From Candidatus Limnocylindria bacterium (GTDB lineage: Bacteria > Chloroflexota > Limnocylindria > QHBO01), in contig DASSPJ010000006.1 of assembly GCA_035699665.1 (NCBI GenBank), forward strand, positions 1 through 60,790: a stretch of 60,790 nucleotides of DNA, written 5' to 3'. Each line of letters starts with the position of its first letter. The stretch's first letter is position 1. Shown here piece by piece: positions 32,940 to 57,281 of this stretch. The notes beneath the pieces are model-generated. The model made no database searches, had not been told where the DNA came from, and was given only the letters and a program-made list of their open reading frames with translations. The translations under genes were made by a program, and so were the position numbers.

Positions 32940-35512
32940 ACACCGTGGATCCCGAGATTCGGAACGACAACCCTGACGAGCCGCAGCCGGGCGAGCAGCC
33001 CGCCGCGGAGGCCGTCGAGCCGCCGGCCGGTGCCGCCGAGGGCGGCCAGGTCCTGCCGTTGGTGGCGCTGCGCGACACCGTCATCTTCCCGGAGATGATC
33101 GTGCCCCTGAACGTCGGCCGCGACCGCAGCGTCAAGGCGCTCGACCGCGCCGTGCGCTCCGGCTCGAGCATCGCGCTCGTCACCCAGCGCAGCTCCGACA
33201 CGGAGGAGGTGGACACGGCCGAGGAGCTGTACGCCATCGGCACGCTGGCCAAGATCGCCCAGGTGATCCGCTCCCAGGACGGGTCGCTGCGCGCCATCGT
33301 CCAGGGGCAGCGCCGCATCCGCCTGCTGGCCCTGACCCAGACCGAGCCGTACCTCGAGGCGCGCGTGGAGGTGGTCGAGGACGCGCACCCCAAGACCCTC
33401 GAGGTCGAGGCCCTGATGGCATCGGTCCAGGCGCAGATCGAGACGTACGTCAGCTCGGGCGCCTCGGTGCCGCCGGAGGTGGCGGTCGCCGCGCGCAACA
33501 TCGGCGAGGGCGGGCTGCTGGCCGACATGGTCGCCTACAGCCCCGACATGGACACCGATCTGCGGCAGGAGCTGCTCGAGACGATCGACGTCCCGGAGCG
33601 CCTGCGCAAGGTGGGCGCCTTCCTGGCCAAGCAGATCGAGGTGCTCGAGCTGAAGGGCCGCATCCAGTCCGAGGTCAAGTCCGAGATGGACAAGACCCAG
33701 CGCGAGTACATCCTGCGCGAGCAGATGAAGGCGATCCAGAAGGAGCTCGGCGAGGACGATCCCGCGGTCGCCGAGGCCGGAGAGCTGCGCACCCGGGTCG
33801 AGGAGTCGGCGATGCCCGACGCGGTGAAGGAGAAGGCGCTCAAGGAGGTGGACCGCATGGCCCGCATCCCGTCCGCCTCCCCCGAGCAGGGCGTCATTCG
33901 CACCTACGTCGACTGGCTGGTGAGCCTGCCGTGGGGCGTCGAGACCGATGACAACCTCGACCTGGCCGATGCGGAGCGCATCCTCAACGAGGACCACTAC
34001 GGGCTGGAGAAGCCCAAGGAGCGCATCGTCGAGTACATGGCTGTGCGCAAGCTGGCCGACAAGATCCGCTCGCCGATCCTCCTCTTCGTCGGCCCGCCGG
34101 GCGTCGGCAAGACGAGCCTCGGCAAGAGCATCGCCAAGGCGATGGGCCGCAAGTTCGTGCGCATGAGCCTCGGCGGCATCCACGACGAGGCCGAGATCCG
34201 CGGGCACCGACGCACCTACATCGGCGCGCTCCCCGGCCGCGTCATCCAGAGCATCAAGACCGCCGAGTCGGCGAACCCGGTGTTCATGCTCGACGAGATC
34301 GACAAGGTCGGCATGGACTTTCGCGGCGACCCCTCGAGCGCCCTCCTCGAGGTCCTCGACCCCGAGCAGAACAACACGTTCCAGGACAACTACCTGGAGG
34401 TGCCGTTCGACCTGTCGAAGGTGCTCTTCATCGCCACCGCCAACATGCTCGACACCATCCCGCCGGCCCTCCGCGACCGGATGGAGGTGATCCAGCTGCC
34501 CGGCTACACGCAGCTCGAGAAGCTCGGCATCGCGCAGCGCTTCCTGGTGCCCAAGCAGCTCGAGGCGCACGGCCTGACGGACGCCAACCTCGTCATCGAC
34601 GAGGCCGCCCTGGTGCGCCTCATCCAGGCCTTCACCAAGGAGGCCGGGGTCCGCAACCTGGAGCGCGAGATCGCCAACATCAGCCGCAAGGTGGCGCGTC
34701 GCGTGGCCGACGACCGGAAGGTCACCGTGACCGTGACCCCGGACGACCTCGAGGAGTACCTCGGACCGGCTCGCTTCGAGTACGGCGAGCTGGAGACGGA
34801 GGACACGGTCGGCATGGTGACCGGCCTCGTGGTCAGCGATGCGGGCGGCGACATCGTGCAGGTCGAGGCGACCAAGATGGACGGCAAGGACGACTTCATC
34901 CTCACCGGCCAGCTGGGCAGCGTGATGCAGGAGTCGGCGCGTGCCGGCCTCAGCTACGTCCGCGCCCGGTCGCGCGACCTGGGGATCGACCCCGCCGCGT
35001 TCGAGAAGCAGACGATCCACATCCACGTCCCGGCCGGGGCGACCCCCAAGGACGGCCCCAGCGCCGGCGTGACGATGGCCACCGCCATGGCGAGCCTCCT
35101 CTCCGGCAAGCCGGTGCGCCGTGACCTGGCCATGACCGGCGAGATCACCCTCCGCGGCCGCGTCCTGCCGATCGGCGGGCTGAAGTCCAAGCTGCTCGCC
35201 GCGCACCTCGCCGGCGTGAAGACGGTCCTCATCCCGCAGCGCAACGAGAAGGACCTGGTCGACGTGCCCGAGGAGGTGCGCACCCAGCTCCGCATCGTGC
35301 CGGTCGAGACGATGGACCAGGTGCTGGCCGAGGCGCTCATCGACGCGCCGCGGCCCGCGGCCCGCATCAAGGCCGAGCGCGACCAGCGCCAGCGACGCGC
35401 CGCGGCCCGACCGCGCCGGACCCGCAAGCCGGCGGACGAGGAGGCGCCGGTCGCCGCCAAGCCGGCGGCGCCGAAGCGTCCACAGCCCCAGCCGCCGGCG
35501 GGCAGTGCCTGA
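32936..35512 (+). CDS. lon: ATP-dependent Lon protease
   Basis: It has a Lon N-domain ([19 protein letters not shown]), Walker [10 protein letters not shown], and the catalytic Ser context [11 protein letters not shown]. It shares a GTGA overlap with hspR. Confidence 0.95.
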
Positions 35513-35724
35513 GGCGACCGATGGATCGGCCGATGCATCGATGGGATGACGCCTGGCCGCCCGATTCGGGCGTCGCTTCATCGACGCATCGATGGAACCG
35601 TGGCCCGAGACGGTCATTCGGCGCCGTCCCGGCGCCAGGCGGACCGATCAATCGTCGGTGCGTGGCCCGGAGCCCGGCGTGGGGCGATACGCCGGCGGTC
35701 CATCGGTAAGGGGGTCGGCGAGCC

Positions 35725-36702
35725 ATGGACTACAAGGACTACTACGCCATCCTCGGCGTGCCGAAGACCGCGTCACAGGCCGAGATCAAGAAGGCCTACC
35801 GCCGGCTGGCGCGTGAGCTCCACCCGGACACCAACGCAGATCCGGCCGCCGAGCGGCGCTTCAAGGAGGCCAACGAGGCGCACGCCGTCCTCTCCGACCC
35901 GGAGAAGCGGAAGCGCTACGACGAGCTGGGGTCGAACTGGCAGGCTTACGAGCAGGCCGGCTTCGATCCAGGCCAGGCATCATCCTGGGCCGGATTCGGC
36001 GGCGCGCCGGGCGGCACGCGCTGGACGTACCGCACCGTCTCGCCCGACGAGATGGGTGGCTTCAGCGACTTCTTCCGCACCTTCTTCGGAGCCGATGCCG
36101 GTGGCTTTGCCACCGGGCGCGCCGGTTCCCCCGGCGGGTTCGACACCCTCTATGACTTCGGCGGCGCCTCCGCGCCGCGCCAGGTCCGCGCCCCGCAGGC
36201 CACCGCCGAGGCCCAGATCAGCCTGGCCGAGGCGATGCGTGGCGCGAAGCGGATGGTGAACGTCGACGGCCGGCGCCTGGAGGTGACGATCCCCCCGGGC
36301 GTTGCCGACGGGGCCAGGATCAAGCTCCGCGGCGGAGGCCTGCGCTCCAACGGCGGGGGCGCCGGCGACCTGCTGATCACCGTGCGCATCGCGCCCGATC
36401 CACGCTTCGAGCGGCGTGGCGCCGACCTGCACACCGAGCTGCCGCTCACCCTCGCCGAGGCCCTGCTGGGTGCCGAGGTGCCGGTGCGGACGCCCACCGG
36501 GAGCGTGAAGCTGCGCATCCGCCCCAACACGCAGAACGGGCAGCAGATCCACGTCCCCGGACGCGGCATGCCGAAGAAGAACGGTGAGAAGGGCGACCTG
36601 GTCGTCACGGTGCGGGTCGTGCTGCCACGGCTGGACGAGGCGGGGCGCGCCGACTTCGGCGCGTTCGCCGCCGCGCACCCGCAGCCGGAGCCACCGAGGT
36701 AG
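35725..36702 (+). CDS. J-domain co-chaperone (DnaJ/CbpA type, no zinc-finger region)
   Basis: The J domain reads [34 protein letters not shown]-rich linker and DnaJ C-terminal domains are present, but no CxxCxGxG repeats. Confidence 0.85.
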
Positions 36703-52058: not shown

Positions 52059-52126
52059 CGGCTCCCGCGCGGCGGCCTGCGGCGTCCCGCGGATGCCGGG
52101 GTGCCAACGCGCGCGAACCCGGTCCC

Positions 52127-52132
52127 TATACT
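52127..52132 (+). promoter_or_regulatory. -10 element TATACT, 7 nt upstream of the tdh ATG
   Basis: CCTATACTCGTGGCG-ATG with no Shine-Dalgarno sequence, so the predicted mRNA is leaderless. Confidence 0.55.
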
Positions 52133-52139
52133 CGTGGCG

Positions 52140-53189
52140 ATGACCGCGACCGCCCCGCCGCGCACCATGCGCGCGCTCGCCAAGACGCGTCCCGAGCCGG
52201 GCGCGGAGCTGGTCGAACGCCCGGTCCCGGTCCCGGGCCCGGGCGACGTGCTGCTGCGCATGGAGGCCGCCTCGATCTGCGGCACCGACCTGCACCTGTT
52301 CAGCTGGGACGCCTGGGCGCAGGACGTCATGCGGCCGCCGACGATCCTCGGCCACGAGCTGGCGGGGCGCGTGGTCGGCACCGGCAGCGGCGTCACGCGG
52401 GTCCGCGAGGGCGACCTGGTCGGCGTCGAGAGCCACCTCGTCGACTGGACCTGTTCGGTCTGCCGGCGGGGTGACCCGCACCTGTGCCGCAACCTGCGCG
52501 TGATCGGGGCGCACGTCGACGGCGGATTCGCCGAGTACGTCGTCGTTCCCGAGGAGAACGCCATCGAGAGCAACGGCCTCGACCCCGCGGTCGTCGCTCT
52601 CCAGGAGCCGATGGGCAACGCGGTGCACGCCGCCTTCGTCGAGCCGATCGAGGGGAGGAGCGTGCTCGTCACCGGATGCGGCCCGATCGGGCTGTGCTCG
52701 GTGGGGATCGCCCGCGCTGCCGGCGCATCGGTCGTGATCGCCACCGATACCGAGCCGTATCGCCTGGAGCTGGCCCGCACCATGGGGGCACACCTCGCGC
52801 TCGACGCCGCCGACCCCGCCACGCCGGGGCGCGTTCGCGAGGCGACCGGCGGGGACGGGGTCGAGGTGGTGCTCGAGATGAGCGGCGCGGCGCCGGCCCT
52901 TGCGCAGGCGCTCGACGTCATCGACCGCGGCGGGCGCATCAGCCTGCTCGGCATCTTCGGCGAACCGCCGACGGTCGACCTGTCCGACCTGGTGATCATG
53001 AAGGGCGTGCGTCTGCACGGGATCTTCGGCCGGCGCATGTACGAGACCTGGGAGCAGACCCAGGCGCTCCTTCGCGGCGGGCTCGACGTGAGCCCCATCA
53101 TCACCCATCGACTTCCACTCGAGCGCTGGCCCGAGGCGTTCGACCAGATCGCCTCGCGTCACGCCGGCAAGGTCGTGCTCCTGCCGTAG
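52140..53189 (+). CDS. tdh: L-threonine 3-dehydrogenase (zinc-dependent MDR family)
   Basis: Motifs: MEAASICGTDLHLF, GHELAGRVV, the structural-zinc Cys cluster CSVCRRGDPHLC, and GCGPIGL. kbl lies downstream. Confidence 0.85.
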   Translation: MTATAPPRTMRALAKTRPEPGAELVERPVPVPGPGDVLLRMEAASICGTDLHLFSWDAWAQDVMRPPTILGHELAGRVVGTGSGVTRVREGDLVGVESHLVDWTCSVCRRGDPHLCRNLRVIGAHVDGGFAEYVVVPEENAIESNGLDPAVVALQEPMGNAVHAAFVEPIEGRSVLVTGCGPIGLCSVGIARAAGASVVIATDTEPYRLELARTMGAHLALDAADPATPGRVREATGGDGVEVVLEMSGAAPALAQALDVIDRGGRISLLGIFGEPPTVDLSDLVIMKGVRLHGIFGRRMYETWEQTQALLRGGLDVSPIITHRLPLERWPEAFDQIASRHAGKVVLLP

Positions 53190-53218: not shown

Positions 53219-53430
53219 CTCAGGTCGTGAGGCCTATCGGGGCGCGCCGGGCTCCTGCCGGCGGCCAAGTCTCACCAGCTGAGAGCTACACACGCGCCCG
53301 GTCCTTGTGAGCGCCTACCTCTCACCATCCGAGAGTTGCAAGACAGGGCGAGCCCCTCCGCTGGGATAAGCCTCACCAGCCGAGAGGTCGAGCACCCGGT
53401 GAAGCCGCCACGCCCTCGATAAGCGCCCGA
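53219..53430 (+). repeat. left array: four phased hairpin repeats, cores at 53219, 53271, 53321, 53372
   Basis: The cores are CTCAGGTCGTGAGG, CTCACCAGCTGAGAG, CTCACCATCCGAGAG and CTCACCAGCCGAGAG. Spacing is 52/50/51 nt, and every core has an A at -4. Confidence 0.8.
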
Positions 53431-53467
53431 TGAGTTGCCGGTAAGGCCCGCCGTCCATCATCGGAGC

Positions 53468-54274
53468 ATGAACTTCGTGCCGATGGGCCGTGTGTTGCGG
53501 ATGCTTCGCCTGCGGCGGAACTGGACGCAGGGTGCAGTGGCGGATCGTGCGCGCGTGTCGGCGGCCACGGTCGGTCGTCATGAAAACGGCCGCGTCGGAA
53601 GCTTCGATGCGCTCGAGCGTCACGCCGCCGTGTTCAGCCTGCGGGTGGAGGTGCGCCTGACCGGACGCGCTGGTGAGCTCGCGCGGATCGGTGACGAGGA
53701 GCACGCCGCCATCGTGGAGACCGTCGCAGCGACGCTCCGCGCCGCGGGGTTTGCGGTCGAGCCAGAGGTGAGCTTCAACCAGTGGGGCGAGCGTGGGCGA
53801 ATCGACCTGCTGGCCTACCACCCGGACACCGGCACGCTGGTCATCGTCGAGGTCAAGACGCTGCTCGTCGACCTGCAGGACCTCTTTGGCCGCCTCGACA
53901 CGAAGGTGCGACTCGCCGGAATGGTCGCGGAGCGTCTCGGTTGGACGGCTCGCCGCAGGGTGACGCTGCTGGTCGTGGCGGACACGTCGCACAACCGCCA
54001 CATCGTCCGCCGACACCCCGTCCTGTTCAGCGCGTTCGAGTCGCGCGATCTTCGTGGTGTTCCGCTGGCCGAGGACGGCGCCAGGCTGCTGAGATGGATC
54101 ACGCACGAGCGGGCCTCGCGGCCGCCCTGGCTCGCCGGGCGGCAGCGGATCCGACGCCGCCGAAGGGCCGCGGACGTACCACGCCCCTCCGAGCGGCGCC
54201 AGCTCTCACCTCGTGAGGCCAATCCCCCGGACCGACCGGCTGACCCGCAGCAACTCTCACCGGATGGGGGTTGA
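53468..54274 (+). CDS. XRE-type HTH fused to PD-(D/E)xK nuclease-like domain, Arg-rich tail
   Basis: The HTH reads LRMLRLRRNWTQGAVADRARVSAATVGRHENG. The nuclease-like core reads EEHAAIVE ... GERGRIDLLAY ... LVIVEVKT. The first 40 codons are about 25% A/T at the third position, against about 5% in tdh. The start could also be the TTG at 53435 or the ATG at 53483. Confidence 0.65.
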   Translation: MNFVPMGRVLRMLRLRRNWTQGAVADRARVSAATVGRHENGRVGSFDALERHAAVFSLRVEVRLTGRAGELARIGDEEHAAIVETVAATLRAAGFAVEPEVSFNQWGERGRIDLLAYHPDTGTLVIVEVKTLLVDLQDLFGRLDTKVRLAGMVAERLGWTARRRVTLLVVADTSHNRHIVRRHPVLFSAFESRDLRGVPLAEDGARLLRWITHERASRPPWLAGRQRIRRRRRAADVPRPSERRQLSPREANPPDRPADPQQLSPDGG

Positions 54275-54408
54275 CCAGCGCGCCGCGGGACGGCGAGCGG
54301 TCAGCGCTCACCTGCTGAGAGTTGACAACGCTCCGCTCATCGTGCGCCGCGATACGCCTCACCTGGTGAGCGGTGCGCGGACCAGGAGAACTCCGGCTGC
54401 TGCCCGCT
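54205..54408 (+). repeat. right array: four phased hairpin repeats, cores at 54205, 54256, 54307, 54358
   Basis: The cores are CTCACCTCGTGAGG, CTCACCGGATGGGGG, CTCACCTGCTGAGAG and CTCACCTGGTGAG. Spacing is exactly 51 nt. The first two units overlap the CDS tail. Confidence 0.8.
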
Positions 54409-54461: not shown

Positions 54462-54467
54462 TATACT
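54462..54467 (+). promoter_or_regulatory. -10 element TATACT, 7 nt upstream of the kbl ATG
   Basis: CCTATACTCGACCCG-ATG has the same geometry as the tdh promoter. Confidence 0.55.
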
Positions 54468-54474
54468 CGACCCG

Positions 54475-55689
54475 ATGACCGACGCCACCGCGCGTACGCG
54501 CAACCCGCTCGCCTTCCTGGACGCCACGCTCGACGACCTGCGGGCGCGCGGCCTCTACCGGCGGCTGCGCGTGGTCGAGAGCGAGCAGGCGAGCCGCTGC
54601 GTCATCGACGGCCGCGAGGTGATCACCCTCAGCTCGAACAACTACCTGGGGCTCACCACCCATCCACGCCTGAAGGCGGCGGCGATCGAGGCGGTTGAGC
54701 GATTCGGGGCCGGCAGCGGAGCCGTGCGCACCATCGCCGGCACGATGCGTCTCCACGAGCAGCTGGAAGCGCGGCTCGCCGGCTTCAAGCACGTCGAGGC
54801 GGTGCTCACCTTCCAGTCCGGGTTCACCTGCAACACCGGCGTGATCCCGATCCTGGCGCCCGGTGGTGCGGTGATCGTCTCCGACGCCCTGAACCACGCC
54901 AGCATCATCGACGGCATCCGCCTCACCAAGGCCGAGCGCAAGATCTTCCCGCACGCCGACATGGAGGCGCTGCGGAGCGCCCTGGCCGAGGTGCGCGCGG
55001 CGCCGGGCGGCGCGGAGCGGACCATCCTGGTGATCACCGACGGCGTCTTCAGCATGGACGGCGACATTGCCCGGCTTCCCGAGATCGTGGAGGCGGCCGA
55101 GGAGCACGACGCGATCGTCTACGTCGACGACGCCCACGCGTCCGGGGTGCTGGGTCGCAACGGGCGCGGGAGCGTCGACCATTTCGACCTTCACGGCCGC
55201 GTCCACGTGCAGGTCGGGACGCTGTCCAAGGCGATCGGCGTGCTGGGCGGCTACGTCGCCGGGCCGGCGAGCCTGCGCGCGGTGCTCGAGCACCAGGGAC
55301 GCCCCTTCCTCTTCTCGACCTCGCACCCGCCGGCCGTGGCCGCGGCCTGCCTCGCCGCGATCGACGTGCTCGAGCAAGAGCCGGAGCTGATCGAGCGGCT
55401 GTGGACCAACGCGCGCCACTTCAAGGCGGGGCTGGCACGGCTCGGGTTCGACACCGGCGCGTCCGAGACGCCGATCACGCCCGTCATCGTCGGCGCCGGC
55501 GCGCTGGCCCACAGGCTGAGCGACCGCCTCTTCGAAGAGGGCGTCTTCGCCATGGGGATCGGCTTCCCGACCGTCCCGGAGGAGAAGAGCCGGGTGCGCA
55601 CCATCGTGACCGCGGAGCACACCATCGCGGAGCTCGATGCCTGCCTGGCGGCGTTCGAGAAGGTCGGCCGCGAACTGGCCATCATCTGA
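54475..55689 (+). CDS. kbl: glycine C-acetyltransferase (2-amino-3-ketobutyrate CoA ligase)
   Basis: It is an alpha-oxoamine synthase fold ([20 protein letters not shown]-Lys context GTLSKA). It is paired with tdh. Confidence 0.85.
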
Positions 55690-55815
55690 GCCACGTGGGC
55701 GGTGCGCCAGGGCACCGCTGCATCTTCCCTCCGCGGTACCCGGGCAGTACGATGGGCGCCGCCTTCGGGCGTGACCGTTGCCCTCACGTGCCCAGCAGGA
55801 ACTCCCCAGAGACCG

Positions 55816-56451
55816 ATGCGCCCGCGATCGATGGACCTCCTCGCGCCCCCCGCCGCCGACCCGGCCCTCCTGCAGCCGCCCGACCTTCCGGCCCTGGCGA
55901 CCGCCCCGCTGGCGCGCGACGCGTCCATCGACGAGCTGGCTCTCGCCGCGCGGGACGGTGATGTCGCGGCGCTCGGCCGTCTCTACGACGAGCTGGTCAC
56001 CCCGATCTATCGGTACGTCGCGCTGCGCGTCCGGCGGCGCGAGGATGCCGAGGACCTGACGCAGCTCGTCTTCGAGCGCATCGTGGGCGCCCTGCCGCGC
56101 TACCGGCCGAATGGGAGCCCGTTCCAGGCATGGGCGTACCGCATCGCCCGCAATGCGGTGATCGACCATGCACGGCGCGAGCGGAACCATGAGCCGCTCG
56201 ACCCGCTCCACGAGCGCCCCGGCGACAGCGGTCCCGAGGAGATGAGCATGCTCGGGGAGGAGATCCGTGAGCTGCGTCGCGCGATCCGCGGCCTGACTCC
56301 GGACCAGCAGGAGGCGCTCACCCTGCGCTTCGCGGCCGGTCTGTCGGCCGAGGAGGCGGCGCTGGTGATGGGACGCCGCGCCGGCACCGTCCGCGGTCTG
56401 ACGTTCCGCGCCATCACGGCGCTCCGTCGCCGCCTGGGCGAGGAGCCGTAA
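55816..56451 (+). CDS. ECF-type RNA polymerase sigma factor
   Basis: Region 2 reads LYDELVTPIYRYVALRVRRREDAEDLTQLVFERI ... FQAWAYRIARNAVIDH. Region 4 reads LTPDQQEALTLRFAAGLSAEEAALVMGRRAGTVRGLTFRA. I chose the ATG at 55816 inside track ORF 55702..56451. Confidence 0.8.
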   Translation: MRPRSMDLLAPPAADPALLQPPDLPALATAPLARDASIDELALAARDGDVAALGRLYDELVTPIYRYVALRVRRREDAEDLTQLVFERIVGALPRYRPNGSPFQAWAYRIARNAVIDHARRERNHEPLDPLHERPGDSGPEEMSMLGEEIRELRRAIRGLTPDQQEALTLRFAAGLSAEEAALVMGRRAGTVRGLTFRAITALRRRLGEEP

Positions 56452-56453
56452 GC

Positions 56454-57281
56454 GTGGCGCGCACCCGTGACCGCGGCCGGCCGGCGGTCTTCCGCCGTGT
56501 CGAGCGCGATGCGACGCCGCACGATCGGACGTTGCGCGCCAGGCTGCGCCACGGGACGGAGCTCGAGCCGGACCCGCGGTTCGCGCGCCGCCTGCGCGGC
56601 ATCGTCCTCAGCCGGCACGTGGCCGTGCGCGAGGGCCACGTCGTGCCATCTGCCCGTCGTGCCATGACGCCCATCGGCCGTGGCGTGCTCGTCAGCAGCG
56701 TGCTGCTGGCGCTCGGGGTGACCGGCGTCGGCGCCTACTCGCAGTCCGCCCTGCCCGATGACGTCCTCTACCCGATCAAGCTGCGCCTCGAACAGCTGCG
56801 GATCGCCATCGCTCCGGCGGAGATGCGTGACGACCTCCTCGCGCTCGCGCTCGAGGAGCGGGCCGTCGAGCTCGCGCGGGCGGCCGATGCGGGTCGCTGG
56901 AACGCCGCCGAAGAGGCCGCCTGGCGGCTCGCGGTGACCGAGTCCGAGCTCGTCGCCCTGGACAGCCTCACGCCCGCGGTCGCGGCTCGTGTGGCGGCGC
57001 ACCTCCACGCCCTGGACCAGGTCCTGGCCCACGCGCCGGAGCACGCCGCGGCGACGGTCGCCGAGCGCCTCGACCCGGCCCGCGCAGACCTCCGTCGCCT
57101 GGCGCGGGGCGTGACCGGCGCGCCGACCGGTGTGCCCGCCCGCCGCGGGCCGGCCGCCGACCCGGCGAGCCCAGCCGGGGAGCGTCCACCAGCAGCGCCA
57201 GGCCGTTCGACTCGCCCCTCGCCCTCCCCGCGCGGCGCGGCGGGCGAGCCGGCGACGAACCGCGCGTCGGACAACGACTGA
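56454..57281 (+). CDS. putative anti-sigma factor (single TM, DUF5667-like extracytoplasmic domain)
   Basis: The GTG start is 3 nt after the sigma gene stop. It has a TM helix (VLVSSVLLALGVTGVGAY), then VLYPIKLRLEQLRIAIAP... and a helical repeat region. Confidence 0.55.
   Translation: MARTRDRGRPAVFRRVERDATPHDRTLRARLRHGTELEPDPRFARRLRGIVLSRHVAVREGHVVPSARRAMTPIGRGVLVSSVLLALGVTGVGAYSQSALPDDVLYPIKLRLEQLRIAIAPAEMRDDLLALALEERAVELARAADAGRWNAAEEAAWRLAVTESELVALDSLTPAVAARVAAHLHALDQVLAHAPEHAAATVAERLDPARADLRRLARGVTGAPTGVPARRGPAADPASPAGERPPAAPGRSTRPSPSPRGAAGEPATNRASDND

Follow-up and report, generated by a model that had tools for sequence, protein, structure and literature searches.

In soil and freshwater, the Candidatus Limnocylindria form an abundant class of uncultured bacteria. 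The stretch of DNA analyzed here, 60,790 nucleotides from one of them and referred to as the window, contains a single gene, termed gene X, that is bracketed by two arrays of short, regularly spaced repeats. This arrangement raises the question of what the repeats are, and how they relate to the gene that they enclose. A sequence-only reading had described them as phased hairpin units, and favored a cooperative binding lattice for the helix-turn-helix (HTH) domain of the enclosed protein; elements of the REP/BIME type and a processed RNA array were named as alternatives.

An inserted block between tdh and kbl

All features of the locus lie on the plus strand. The stop codon of tdh (52101 to 53189), which encodes a threonine 3-dehydrogenase-like ADH, forms the left limit of an inserted block. 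Its right limit is a −10-like hexamer, TATACT (54462 to 54467), located 7 nt before the ATG of the flanking host gene kbl (54475 to 55689), which encodes a 2-amino-3-ketobutyrate CoA ligase-like aminotransferase. The suggestion that this 1.28-kb block is an insertion was borne out in relatives, since X occupies the tdh-kbl interval in 2 of about 57 Candidatus Limnocylindria species. In the other species (about 55), X is absent from this position, and tdh and kbl overlap or are separated by short intergenic gaps. The nearest relative, as judged by kbl (90% identity), has an empty site, and in empty sites a TATACT-type element is also found 6–7 nt before the kbl ATG. The locus shows in this respect the presence/absence polymorphism at one conserved intergenic site by which free-standing homing endonucleases are recognized. 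An exact-sequence look-up with the Kbl protein of the window found no identical record. The immediate neighbors of X are tdh, kbl, and a gene for an ECF sigma factor, with no ParA-like partner among them.

Gene X (53468 to 54274) encodes a protein of 268 aa, and the letters upstream of it suggest a leaderless start. A −10-like hexamer, CATCAT (53456 to 53461), can be read 6 nt before the ATG, and CATCAT, CATGAT, or CATGCT occupies the same position in four related loci (L001, L009, L011, and L012). Further upstream there are promoter-proximal boxes (53418 to 53446), GATAAGC (53418 to 53424) and GGTAAGG (53440 to 53446). Direct-repeat boxes of this RTAAG/C type occur family-wide at about −55 to −25 from the X start codon; their density upstream of 111 distinct family loci is 16.4 per kb compared with a background of 0.20, an 83-fold difference. 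A scan for the sigma-70 consensus reported nothing, and no terminator-like site was found. The TTGAC or TTGCA letters of the repeat units were rejected as a −35 element because about 23 nt separate them from the next GATAAG box, and a sigma-54 reading of the units fails for want of GG at −24. The last repeat unit is set at variable distances from the promoter, about −44 to −111, with no conservation of phase.

Anatomy of the eight sites

The eight units lie where they had been placed, with cores that start at 53219, 53271, 53321, and 53372 in the left array and at 54205, 54256, 54307, and 54358 in the right array, and the spacings of 52/50/51 nt on the left and 51/51/51 nt on the right are likewise correct. 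An A at −4 is present in 8/8 units of the window and in 61/66 units across the family. The conserved portion had been taken for a hairpin of 15–22 nt; it is instead a 27-bp dyad that extends from −7 to +19, and each site is a pseudo-palindrome of the pattern GNYA-N3-CTCRCC-N-GGYGAG-N3-TRNC. In the left array, the sites are L1 (53212 to 53238; ATCAacaCTCAGGtCGTGAGgccTATC), L2 (53264 to 53290; GCCAagtCTCACCaGCTGAGagcTACA), L3 (53314 to 53340; CCTAcctCTCACCaTCCGAGagtTGCA), and L4 (53365 to 53391; GATAagcCTCACCaGCCGAGaggTCGA). Site L1, whose right outer box (TATC) is strong, is of a unit-1 type, and this type is found again in relatives when they are compared unit by unit; in L4, of a unit-4 type, it is the left outer box (GATA) that is strong. 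In the right array, R1 (54198 to 54224; GCCAgctCTCACCtCGTGAGgccAATC) lies within the coding tail of X, and R2 (54249 to 54275; AGCAactCTCACCgGATGGGggtTGAC) is degenerate, with GGG for GAG, and has the TGA stop codon of X in its right outer box. Site R3 (54300 to 54326; GTCAgcgCTCACCtGCTGAGagtTGAC) matches the 27-bp pattern perfectly, and R4 (54351 to 54377; GATAcgcCTCACCtGGTGAGcggTGCG) is again of the unit-4 type. Both R1 and R2 are thus within the coding tail of X, with the stop codon in the GTTGAC of R2 as had been noted, and the stop codon also falls in the R2-equivalent box in L001 and L011. A coding repeat was discarded as an explanation, because no coding sequence runs through the left array and the tail shows no conservation at the protein level.

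The two arrays had also been described as colinear, and this holds in part. At an offset of 986, left and right share 49% of their letters where the background is 28.6% ± 3.1%, and no other alignment in the window is better; however, the signal is confined to the sites, which are 59–74% identical, whereas the 24-nt spacers are 25–33% identical, as is the background. A matrix of unit-by-unit identities between left and right is only weakly diagonal. The further suggestion of a duplicated block of about 200 bp is a weak claim, as the spacers are unrelated. Tandem Repeats Finder reported nothing on the arrays because the spacers differ.

Duplex sites or hairpins

Inverted symmetry of this kind can be read in two ways. 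The units could be hairpins in RNA or single-stranded DNA, acting as intercistronic stabilizers or terminators, as a CRISPR- or ToxI-like processed array, or as REP-like elements. A stem of 4–7 bp is possible in every unit, several G-T combinations occur at position 4/10, and the right array folds better than shuffled sequences (z = −3.5), in a structure that pairs R2 to R3 immediately after the stop codon. However, the left array folds as its shuffles do (z = −0.39), and covariation does not go past what column composition yields. Of the cells at symmetric positions, 62.2% are paired, compared with 63.7% after shuffling; covariation scores 0.145 compared with 0.161, and 443/500 shuffles reach at least the observed value. 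Mismatched A-C combinations at position 4/10 are as frequent as expected. A search of Rfam at a permissive E-value gave no match, and a structured RNA was rejected on these grounds. The symmetry therefore consists of conserved letters, not of compensatory changes, and because of this the unit looks like a double-stranded protein-binding site. Spacing in steps of about 10.2 bp, described below, matters to duplex DNA and not to RNA.

The more specific forms of the hairpin reading fare no better. A CRISPR array was rejected because the repeats are only 59–74% identical, the unit types are position-specific and keep their order across species, and Tandem Repeats Finder was blank; the first two of these features also argue against a ToxI-like array. 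A type III toxin-antitoxin system of the ToxIN kind is at odds with the degenerate repeats, the lack of a terminator, and a protein that combines an HTH with a PD-(D/E)XK domain. REP/BIME elements with a RAYT were rejected since neither the window nor the remainder of the related loci has dispersed copies, and since X is an HTH and PD-(D/E)XK protein, not Y1 (HUH). The processed-RNA alternative is left without support, and we consider hairpins of any of these types to be very improbable. The pattern of conservation suggests that the eight units are sites in double-stranded DNA, for which X itself is most likely the ligand.

Enrichment and helical phasing

Scanning of the 60.8-kb window with the shorter motif CTCASS-N3-YGAG confined it to 53219–54370, with 12 strand-matches (in seven units) compared with 2.7 expected, a count that was reached in 0/100 shuffles. 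The 27-bp pattern with up to two mismatches recovers 8/8 units and only 2 other matches in the window, where the chance mean is 3.2. In relatives, 81 sites occur in 18.8 kb of orthologue flanks and 0 in 24.3 kb of gene bodies. Across loci L001–L218, the density of sites adjoining X is 1.36 per kb; elsewhere, in 819 kb from related loci, it is 0.049 per kb, no more than chance would give. Sites are thus enriched only beside genes of the X family, but some arrays stand without X (in L156, L255, and L259).

Spacings between sites in relatives fall into classes of 40, 50–52, and 60–63 bp, corresponding to 4, 5, and 6 helical turns, with 51 bp the most frequent (×24), followed by 60–63 (×15), 50 (×5), 52 (×4), and 40 (×1). 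At 10.2 bp per turn, the phase coherence of site spacing is R = 0.91. With five-turn spacing, the four sites of each array are on one face of the helix.

When the whole collection was searched for pairs of sites at a distance of 51 bp, most of the matches were unrelated. Those in Solirubrobacterales fell on a conserved coding motif of rmlB, and those in Cohnella, Flexivirga, and one MAG were unrelated 51-nt tandem repeats.

The protein encoded by gene X

A single-protein genome search for X returned no locus, and relatives were found with an alignment-based query. The protein is a fusion of an XRE-type HTH (residues 6–56) with a PD-(D/E)XK core (approximately residues 77–216). The HTH matches HTH_31 at E = 3.7e-10, with a score of 40.4 bits that exceeds the cut-off of 27; this domain was matched in 26/26 aligned family members, and X can be counted among the Cro/C1-type HTH regulators of the XRE family. 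Structure and profile searches indicate similarity of the HTH to C.BclI and C.AhdI. Past the HTH no curated family was matched, with the individual Pfam nuclease families all below cut-off. The AF2 model (pLDDT 80) has strands at 96–130 followed by a helix, and Foldseek with this model found restriction-like endonuclease folds (R2 RLE, AF1548, and XisH) along with HTHs of HipB and DdrO. The modeled alpha-beta-beta-beta-alpha-beta core, together with an E...D...E-x-K signature formed by E100, D113, E128, and K130, places X in the PD-(D/E)XK superfamily, and these four residues are invariant in the family alignment. The conserved core ends with W..AGRQRIRR at about residue 227 (nt 54148), and beyond it residues 228–268 are variable and disordered; this tail is encoded across R1-R2.

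An initiator or centromere-binding gene amid iterons could leave a locus of similar appearance if the block were the remnant of an iteron replicon or a partition centromere that is now chromosomal. The layout does resemble iteron replicons, with their handcuffing, titration, and autorepression, and also sopC. Against this, X matches no ParB or Rep family (only HTH_31 and HTH_3 pass or approach the cut-off), there is no ParA-like neighbor, and its nuclease active site is conserved. The block contains no AT-rich stretch (minimum GC 50% per 30 nt) and no DnaA box, and no plasmid relative was found. Such an origin appears highly unlikely.

Divergence of the sites with the protein

The core triplet of the dyad follows the protein clade; the architecture and the phasing are the same throughout. 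Cores of the CTC/GAG type occur in the clades of the window, L057, L058, L012, L013, L060, L063, and L068; CCC/GGG cores in L001 and L011; GCC/GGC cores in L078; and GTC/GAC cores in L014. The A at −4 and a spacing of 50–51 or 61–62 are kept in all of these clades. Comparison of sequences across the family thus indicates that sites and protein diverge together. The link between recognition helix (residues 31–36) and triplet is loose, as the helix has SAAT in the window and SPAA in L012, yet the cores of both are CTC/GAG.

These observations bear on whether the arrays could belong to the host, as cis-regulatory regions for X and for kbl in threonine catabolism that are bound by another host factor, with X as a passenger. 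Both arrays are upstream of leaderless-looking promoters, and the last sites of L156 and L012 stop 17–21 nt short of the kbl −10 element. The solo array of L255 precedes a leaderless-looking AraC-type gene, and there are other dyad repeat families in tdh-kbl gaps of other species and in another intergenic region of the window. However, the triplet tracks the X clade and differs among related hosts that share the tdh-kbl-ECF sigma neighborhood. The right array of L015, flanked by convergent genes, has no promoter to serve, the tdh-kbl interval is array-free in most species, and the sites are absent from the remaining sampled DNA. Regulation of this type by the host is therefore improbable.

Solo arrays and the question of mobility

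Relatives of X are found in another genomic context. In L015, L016, and L075 the gene lies between a divergent and a convergent gene and not between tdh and kbl; L015 has array units on both sides of it, and among the sites listed L016 and L075 have only single strict-pattern ones. Other loci have arrays and no gene: L156 keeps left-type units 1–3 and right-type units 3–4 in the absence of X, forming a solo array, and L255 and L259 have arrays without X within 8 kb. These three cases suggest that the arrays may work independently of a copy of X in cis. No empty sites for the solo arrays of L255 and L259 were found via the upstream methyltransferase-like gene, and the downstream context differs per species. 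Among more distant paralogues (<48% identity), promoter boxes are shared and there are no clear dyad arrays; a strict dyad search found arrays only in L071, L078, and L083, and k-mer repeats in these paralogues were dismissed as GC-rich noise. Local alignment of upstream with downstream flanks picked out three unusual paralogues, and is blind to direct versus inverted orientation because the sites are dyads.

The cassette could be, or could once have been, a mobile or homing element, with X as its nuclease and the arrays as ends with multiple subterminal sites. X would then cut at or near the arrays or empty targets, repair by the host would either duplicate the cassette or delete it, and solo arrays would be internally deleted, MITE-like non-autonomous derivatives. 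Presumptive binding sites of its own on both sides of a gene are the standard layout of a transposon, and the distribution is patchy, both in the 2 of about 57 species at tdh-kbl and in the empty site of the nearest kbl relative. In addition, the array-gene-array module recurs in a second genomic context, L156 retains both end-unit types without the gene, three-unit arrays lacking X exist elsewhere, and the catalytic residues are invariant. Perfect direct repeats of 37 nt (L106) and 126 nt (L051) flank some paralogues, and the GC3 of X is 0.85 compared with 0.93–0.95 in its neighbors.

Several features weigh against mobility. The array units are in direct and not inverted order, and neither target-site duplication nor sharp conserved termini were found at the cassette junctions. 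Near-identical copies in different contexts are absent; paralogues are at most 47% identical, many of them at conserved positions beside nei/fpg or an acyl-CoA dehydrogenase gene. There is one copy of X in 60.8 kb, no relatives were found in viral contigs or plasmid records, and a PD-(D/E)XK domain alone is unable to rejoin DNA. The divergence of X (55–62%) against that of kbl (84–85%) is compatible with vertical descent plus loss. We regard a mobile or homing element as rather unlikely, and the same degree of doubt attaches to the stronger proposal that the array-gene-array unit represents a novel type of selfish or mobile element, in which an HTH/PD-(D/E)XK nuclease would be the sole protein, phased arrays of its binding sites would be the ends, and nuclease-triggered host repair, with no transposase or recombinase, would bring about movement or loss.

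A proposed cooperative lattice of X

The comparative data best support a phased, cooperative lattice for the enclosed HTH protein, as the sequence-only reading had proposed with sopC in mind, because the sites are spaced by helical turns, occur only beside the X family, and diverge in their triplets with the protein clades. To the proposal that the arrays are such a lattice for X, within a cassette that is self-contained and may once have been mobile, we would give slightly better than even chances. In this model X would be the cognate binder, with dimers reading the core triplets via the HTH. The outer GNYA boxes, which recur as RTAAG direct repeats over the X promoter in every family member, would be read by a conserved part of X or by a second contact. 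Four phased dimers per array would assemble cooperatively, and protein-protein contacts would probably bridge the two arrays, with the 0.8-kb gene looped out. As a result, a nuclease that could be harmful would be tightly autoregulated, or titrated, and the bridged arrays might insulate X from tdh read-through. Recombination between its two arrays could cause loss of the cassette and leave a solo array.

Autoregulation alone leaves unexplained the second four-site array, which is downstream and in part within the coding tail, because autorepression calls for sites at the promoter alone, and the invariant catalytic residues imply a putative cutting function that the regulatory model leaves unused.

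If X binds these sites, the locus would be a compact natural case of a nuclease that is controlled or targeted by a lattice of eight phased sites surrounding its gene. The clade-diverged cores (CTC, CCC, GCC, and GTC) could provide a ready set of putative orthogonal protein-site pairs, and their divergence offers a tractable case of protein-DNA co-evolution. The sites also offer a first way into the function of a protein family that is confined to Candidatus Limnocylindria. If the cassette is mobile, a nuclease-only mechanism would join the known kinds of bacterial mobile DNA.

Comparison with known systems

Among the closest parallels is the F-plasmid centromere sopC, which has twelve 43-bp direct repeats, each with a 16-bp inverted repeat that is bound by SopB (PMC3177203). 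The locus presents repeats of this type, with 27-bp dyads at a period of 51 bp and four per array. Tandem direct repeats of about 4–5 turns are common to both systems, at 51 bp in this locus and 43 bp in sopC, as are an inverted-repeat site in each for an HTH protein (probably X here) and non-conserved DNA between sites; a cooperative nucleoprotein assembly is documented for sopC (PMC3177203) and would be expected here. In contrast, X is not of the ParB family, has no ParA partner, and carries a PD-(D/E)XK domain, and two four-site arrays bracket its gene in a chromosomal housekeeping interval, whereas sopC is one 12-site array downstream.

An initiator gene flanked by iteron arrays is known from incC-repA-incA of P1 and ori2-repE-incC of F. 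Vibrio RctB/ori2 is an iteron replicon with titration, handcuffing, and autorepression (PMC6090056). The likeness lies in the layout of a gene flanked by phased arrays with extra boxes over its own promoter, with binding putative here. Iterons are 19–22-bp direct repeats at 21–22 bp, compared with 27-bp dyads at 51 bp here, and the locus has no Rep fold, AT-rich unwinding element, or DnaA box and is not on a plasmid.

The homing endonuclease I-TevI doubles as an autorepressor. As in I-TevI and the controller (C) proteins of restriction-modification systems, an HTH is coupled here, within one polypeptide or by function, to a nuclease that would be held down via operators at its own promoter. 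The nuclease class differs, I-TevI being GIY-YIG, and there is no methyltransferase or intron context; those systems use one or two operators, compared with eight large phased sites on both sides of X.

Transposons with several subterminal sites for their transposase (Tn7, Mu) and the MITEs derived from them resemble the locus in a gene bracketed by multi-site arrays, in the gene-less L156 with both end types, and in the patchy distribution. Unlike Tn7 and Mu, the locus has direct unit order, no target duplication, and no recent copies, and X has no DDE, HUH, or recombinase domain; we know of no PD-(D/E)XK protein that acts alone as a transposase. Short palindromic units also flank a single-copy, chromosomally fixed nuclease-type gene in REP/BIME-RAYT systems, from which the locus differs in that dispersed copies are absent, X is not Y1/HUH, and the units form phased arrays with position-specific variants. 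The array-gene-array cassette is a layout not described before, and has so far been observed in one soil Chloroflexota group only.

The gene between tdh and kbl and its protein

The interval between tdh (52101-53189) and kbl (54475-55689) holds a single gene, X (53468-54274, + strand), and eight short units, all in one orientation. Four lie upstream of X (the left array) and four form the right array (R1-R4), with R1 and R2 inside the coding tail. The sequence-only reading had placed eight units here at spacings of 52/50/51 and 51/51/51 nt, and all were recovered exactly where it put them. Directly downstream of kbl (55702-57281) lie an ECF sigma factor gene and then an anti-sigma-like gene, a pair that is syntenic in all X-bearing relatives examined (L001, L009, L011).

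An XRE-type HTH domain in X scored above the cut-off (HTH_31, E = 3.7e-10), and similarity to PD-(D/E)XK families (MmcB-like, UPF0102/YraN, YhcG) was sub-threshold only. Residues E100, D113, E128, and K130 are invariant across 26 aligned relatives. An AlphaFold model (pLDDT 80) predicts the HTH, a long helix, a beta-beta-beta-alpha nuclease core, and a disordered tail. Foldseek matched the C-terminal half to the restriction-like endonuclease domain of R2 elements, AF1548, XisH, and Upx, and the N-terminal part to the HTHs of HipB, DdrO, and C-proteins; a profile search of solved structures returned HTH matches alone. The conserved core terminates at W..AGRQRVRR (residue ~227), beyond which a variable tail merely reads through the right array. 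In the closest relative (L057, 75% identity), a threefold 51-nt duplication of unit R1 extends this tail in frame by 34 residues. The same locus carries a run of short tandem repeats, GTCGCTCG(G/C), downstream of the tdh stop and ahead of the first array unit (140-200).

Anatomy of the repeat unit

Within the 60.8-kb window, the core pattern of the sequence-only reading is confined to the tdh-kbl region, with 12 strand-matches where 2.7 are expected, a count that no shuffle attains; a looser initial pattern gave 6 against 1.6. Tandem Repeats Finder reported nothing because conservation of the units is only partial, and Rfam gave no match at a permissive threshold. Relatives of X and their flanks were gathered from 45 genome loci and 79 metagenome loci, plus contigs encoding the exact protein. 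In 18.8 kb of flanks of relatives with at least 49% identity, CTC-N7-GAG occurs 69 times (~7 expected). Alignment of 66 distinct units shows conservation extending well beyond the original core, at G(-7), Y(-5), A(-4), CTC, R, C, and C, then G, Y, GAG, T(+16), R(+17), and C(+19). The unit is thus a 27-bp pseudo-palindrome, GNYA-N3-CTCRCC-N-GGYGAG-N3-TRNC, which with up to two mismatches recovers 8/8 window units and two other places in the window (chance mean 3.2). Similarity between the left and right arrays lies entirely within the sites, and the spacers are at background identity; recent duplication of a 200-bp block is therefore unsupported.

Duplex sites rather than hairpins

The units were initially described as hairpins, and this was not borne out. 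No covariation was found among the variable symmetric positions, a test limited by the selection of units through CTC-N7-GAG, which makes those three pairs invariant by construction. Watson-Crick pairing occurs in 25 units at pair (3,9), 23 at (-5,17), and 9 at (-6,18), against 29.8, 26.6, and 16 expected. Overall, 62.2% of cells are paired compared with 63.7% in shuffles, and the covariation score is 0.145 compared with 0.161 (443 of 500 shuffles at least equal it). The dyad therefore consists of letters conserved on each side, which looks like a symmetric protein site. Folded as RNA, the left array is no better than shuffles (z = -0.39). The right array is better (z = -3.5), an effect of pairing between R2 (left half) and R3 (right half) that adjacent dyads produce incidentally.

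The strongest argument for the units acting as duplex DNA comes from their spacing. Gaps between 51 neighbouring site pairs are 51 (24 cases), 50 (5), 52 (4), 60-63 (15), and 40 bp (1), corresponding to 4, 5, or 6 turns of 10.2 bp with a phase coherence of R = 0.91. Between sites, insertions of one full turn are tolerated, those of other lengths not. Together, these patterns favour duplex dyad sites, candidates for protein binding, over hairpins.

Association with the X family

Across loci L001-L218, site density is 1.36/kb in X flanks compared with 0.049/kb elsewhere, which is the chance rate. The only clusters outside X flanks in these loci are L146, an X locus reached via kbl, and L156, an array without X. 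Three relatives with 51-52% identity (L015, L016, L075) are flanked by a divergent gene upstream and a convergent dehydrogenase-like gene on the other side. Arrays bracket X on both sides in L015, so the right array is not tied to the kbl promoter; the sites listed for L016 and L075 are single strict-pattern ones only.

The core triplet varies with protein clade: CTC/GAG in most X clades, CCC/GGG in L001 and L011, GCC/GGC in L078, and GTC/GAC in L014. A(-4) and spacings of 50-51 or 61-62 are retained. Since L001 and L011 share the tdh, kbl, and ECF sigma neighbourhood with the window and have different cores, a conserved host factor seems unlikely as the binder. Every family member, down to paralogues with 36-47% identity, is preceded by two to four RTAAG/C boxes in direct repeat, located between about -55 and -25 relative to the start codon and ~11 bp apart where there are several (16.4/kb; background 0.20/kb). 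These boxes resemble the left outer box of a dyad unit (GATAagc, GGTAggc) standing alone.

The interval in relatives and arrays without X

A Kbl search returned 80 loci, and the comparison covered ~57 Limnocylindria species in which tdh and kbl occur together. X lies between the two genes in 2 of the ~57 (L146, the same locus as L012, and L161, the same as L014). In most, the tdh stop overlaps the kbl start (ATGA), or a gap of 18-60 nt contains only a -10-like hexamer, TATACT or TATCCT, placed 6-7 nt ahead of the ATG; the genome with the nearest Kbl (90% identity) has an empty site. The 1.28-kb block runs from the tdh stop to the kbl -10 element. The block is either an insertion, as was proposed, or an old feature lost many times.

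Both kbl and X are apparently leaderless: a TANNNT-like hexamer precedes the ATG by 6-7 nt, and there is no Shine-Dalgarno (54462-54477 and 53456-53470 in the window; kbl loci L144-L194). In other Limnocylindria species (L140, L186, L192), tdh-kbl gaps of 160-247 nt hold unrelated families of short dyad repeats (for example GCGATCAATCGC / GCGATTGATCGCGAC in L140), and the interval seems to gather repeat arrays.

Some arrays lack the gene. The 297-nt tdh-kbl gap of L156 has five units and no X: compared with L013, units 1-3 match its left units, unit 4 matches either its fourth left unit or its third right unit, and the last matches its R4. This arrangement is the leftover expected from recombination between the two arrays. 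L191 keeps one remnant unit. Searching the collection for pairs of sites at a 51-bp distance turned up an array of this kind, with three units, in two Chloroflexia MAGs (L255, L259), after a methyltransferase-like gene and with no X within 8 kb, and another in L246; the remaining matches were mostly unrelated. Arrays can therefore stand alone, whether they are relics or are served in trans.

The main rival to a regulatory role is a mobile cassette whose ends are the arrays and which is gained and lost through nuclease-triggered repair. It would account for an intact nuclease and a complete downstream array, but the usual marks of mobility (inverted ends, target duplication, recent copies) are absent, and we consider it improbable. 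Distant paralogues share the promoter boxes and lack clear dyad arrays. Several paralogue clades hold conserved positions, one adjoining a divergent nei/fpg-like gene and another preceding an acyl-CoA dehydrogenase-like gene, which is evidence against ongoing transposition. A search for relatives in viral contigs and plasmids found none.

Direct repeats occur around some paralogues. In L106, a perfect 37-nt repeat flanks the gene on both sides (354-391, 1376-1412); it comprises 7 nt upstream, the start codon, and the first ~10 codons of the divergent nei/fpg-like gene, and its downstream copy directly precedes the -10-like TACGCT of the next gene. In L051, the 3' end of the paralogue and the DNA beyond it recur upstream of that gene as a 126-nt near-identical direct repeat (580-706 and 1453-1578, period 873 nt), and in L031 the 3'-end motif is repeated 173 nt further downstream. 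Both could reflect the remnant of a tandem gene or an effect of assembly.

Other repeat families

Another family of dyads (GATGGATCG, GATGCATCGATGG, ATCGACGCATCGATGG), two copies of which are 51 nt apart, occupies the intergenic stretch 35512-35725 of the window, upstream of a DnaJ-like gene; GATCAATCG is also present there, as are GATACG...GGTAAG boxes immediately before the ATG. Tandem arrays with a 51-nt period also occur in unrelated genomes: Cohnella (L267, L282, L276, L270), Flexivirga caeni (L262), and one MAG, binchicken_co141_421 (L231, L235, L240, and others). Each unit combines a perfect palindrome of ~26 nt (in Cohnella, for example, TGAATGCTCATTTTTTGAGCATTCA) with a semi-conserved spacer; the period was preset by the search pattern, so only their existence is informative. 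In a Chloroflexia MAG (L268, 2700-2960), the intergenic region that follows a threonyl-tRNA-synthetase-like gene holds four copies of another palindrome, GCTCGCCCAGCGAGC, spaced by ~40-57 nt.

Proposed role and comparison with known systems

The reading we favour, by a modest degree, is a cognate binding lattice forming a regulatory cassette. The evidence leans towards the idea of a lattice for the HTH of X, with duplex dyad sites in place of hairpins. Dimers of X would occupy the 27-bp sites, and the four phased sites of each array would allow cooperative assembly on one helix face. The two arrays and the promoter boxes could then restrain X expression or titrate the protein, probably via array pairing. 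This model does not explain the need for a nuclease that appears catalytically intact, or a full second array downstream. Whatever weight the lattice and mobile readings leave is shared among a host regulator, an RNA structure, and the remnant of a replicon or centromere.

The separate parts (XRE HTH, PD-(D/E)XK nuclease, phased repeat arrays) are familiar. Together, they correspond to no curated family of the searched libraries, and a literature search on the element found nothing. We know of no described system in which two four-site arrays, built of 27-bp dyads spaced five turns apart, flank an HTH-nuclease gene, with clade-specific cores and gene-less solo arrays. The closest known kind is the autogenous binding-site array, with a real chance of something more unusual. 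The proposed logic matches the handcuffing, titration, and autorepression of iteron systems (PMC6090056), and the phased centromere repeats of sopC (PMC3177203).
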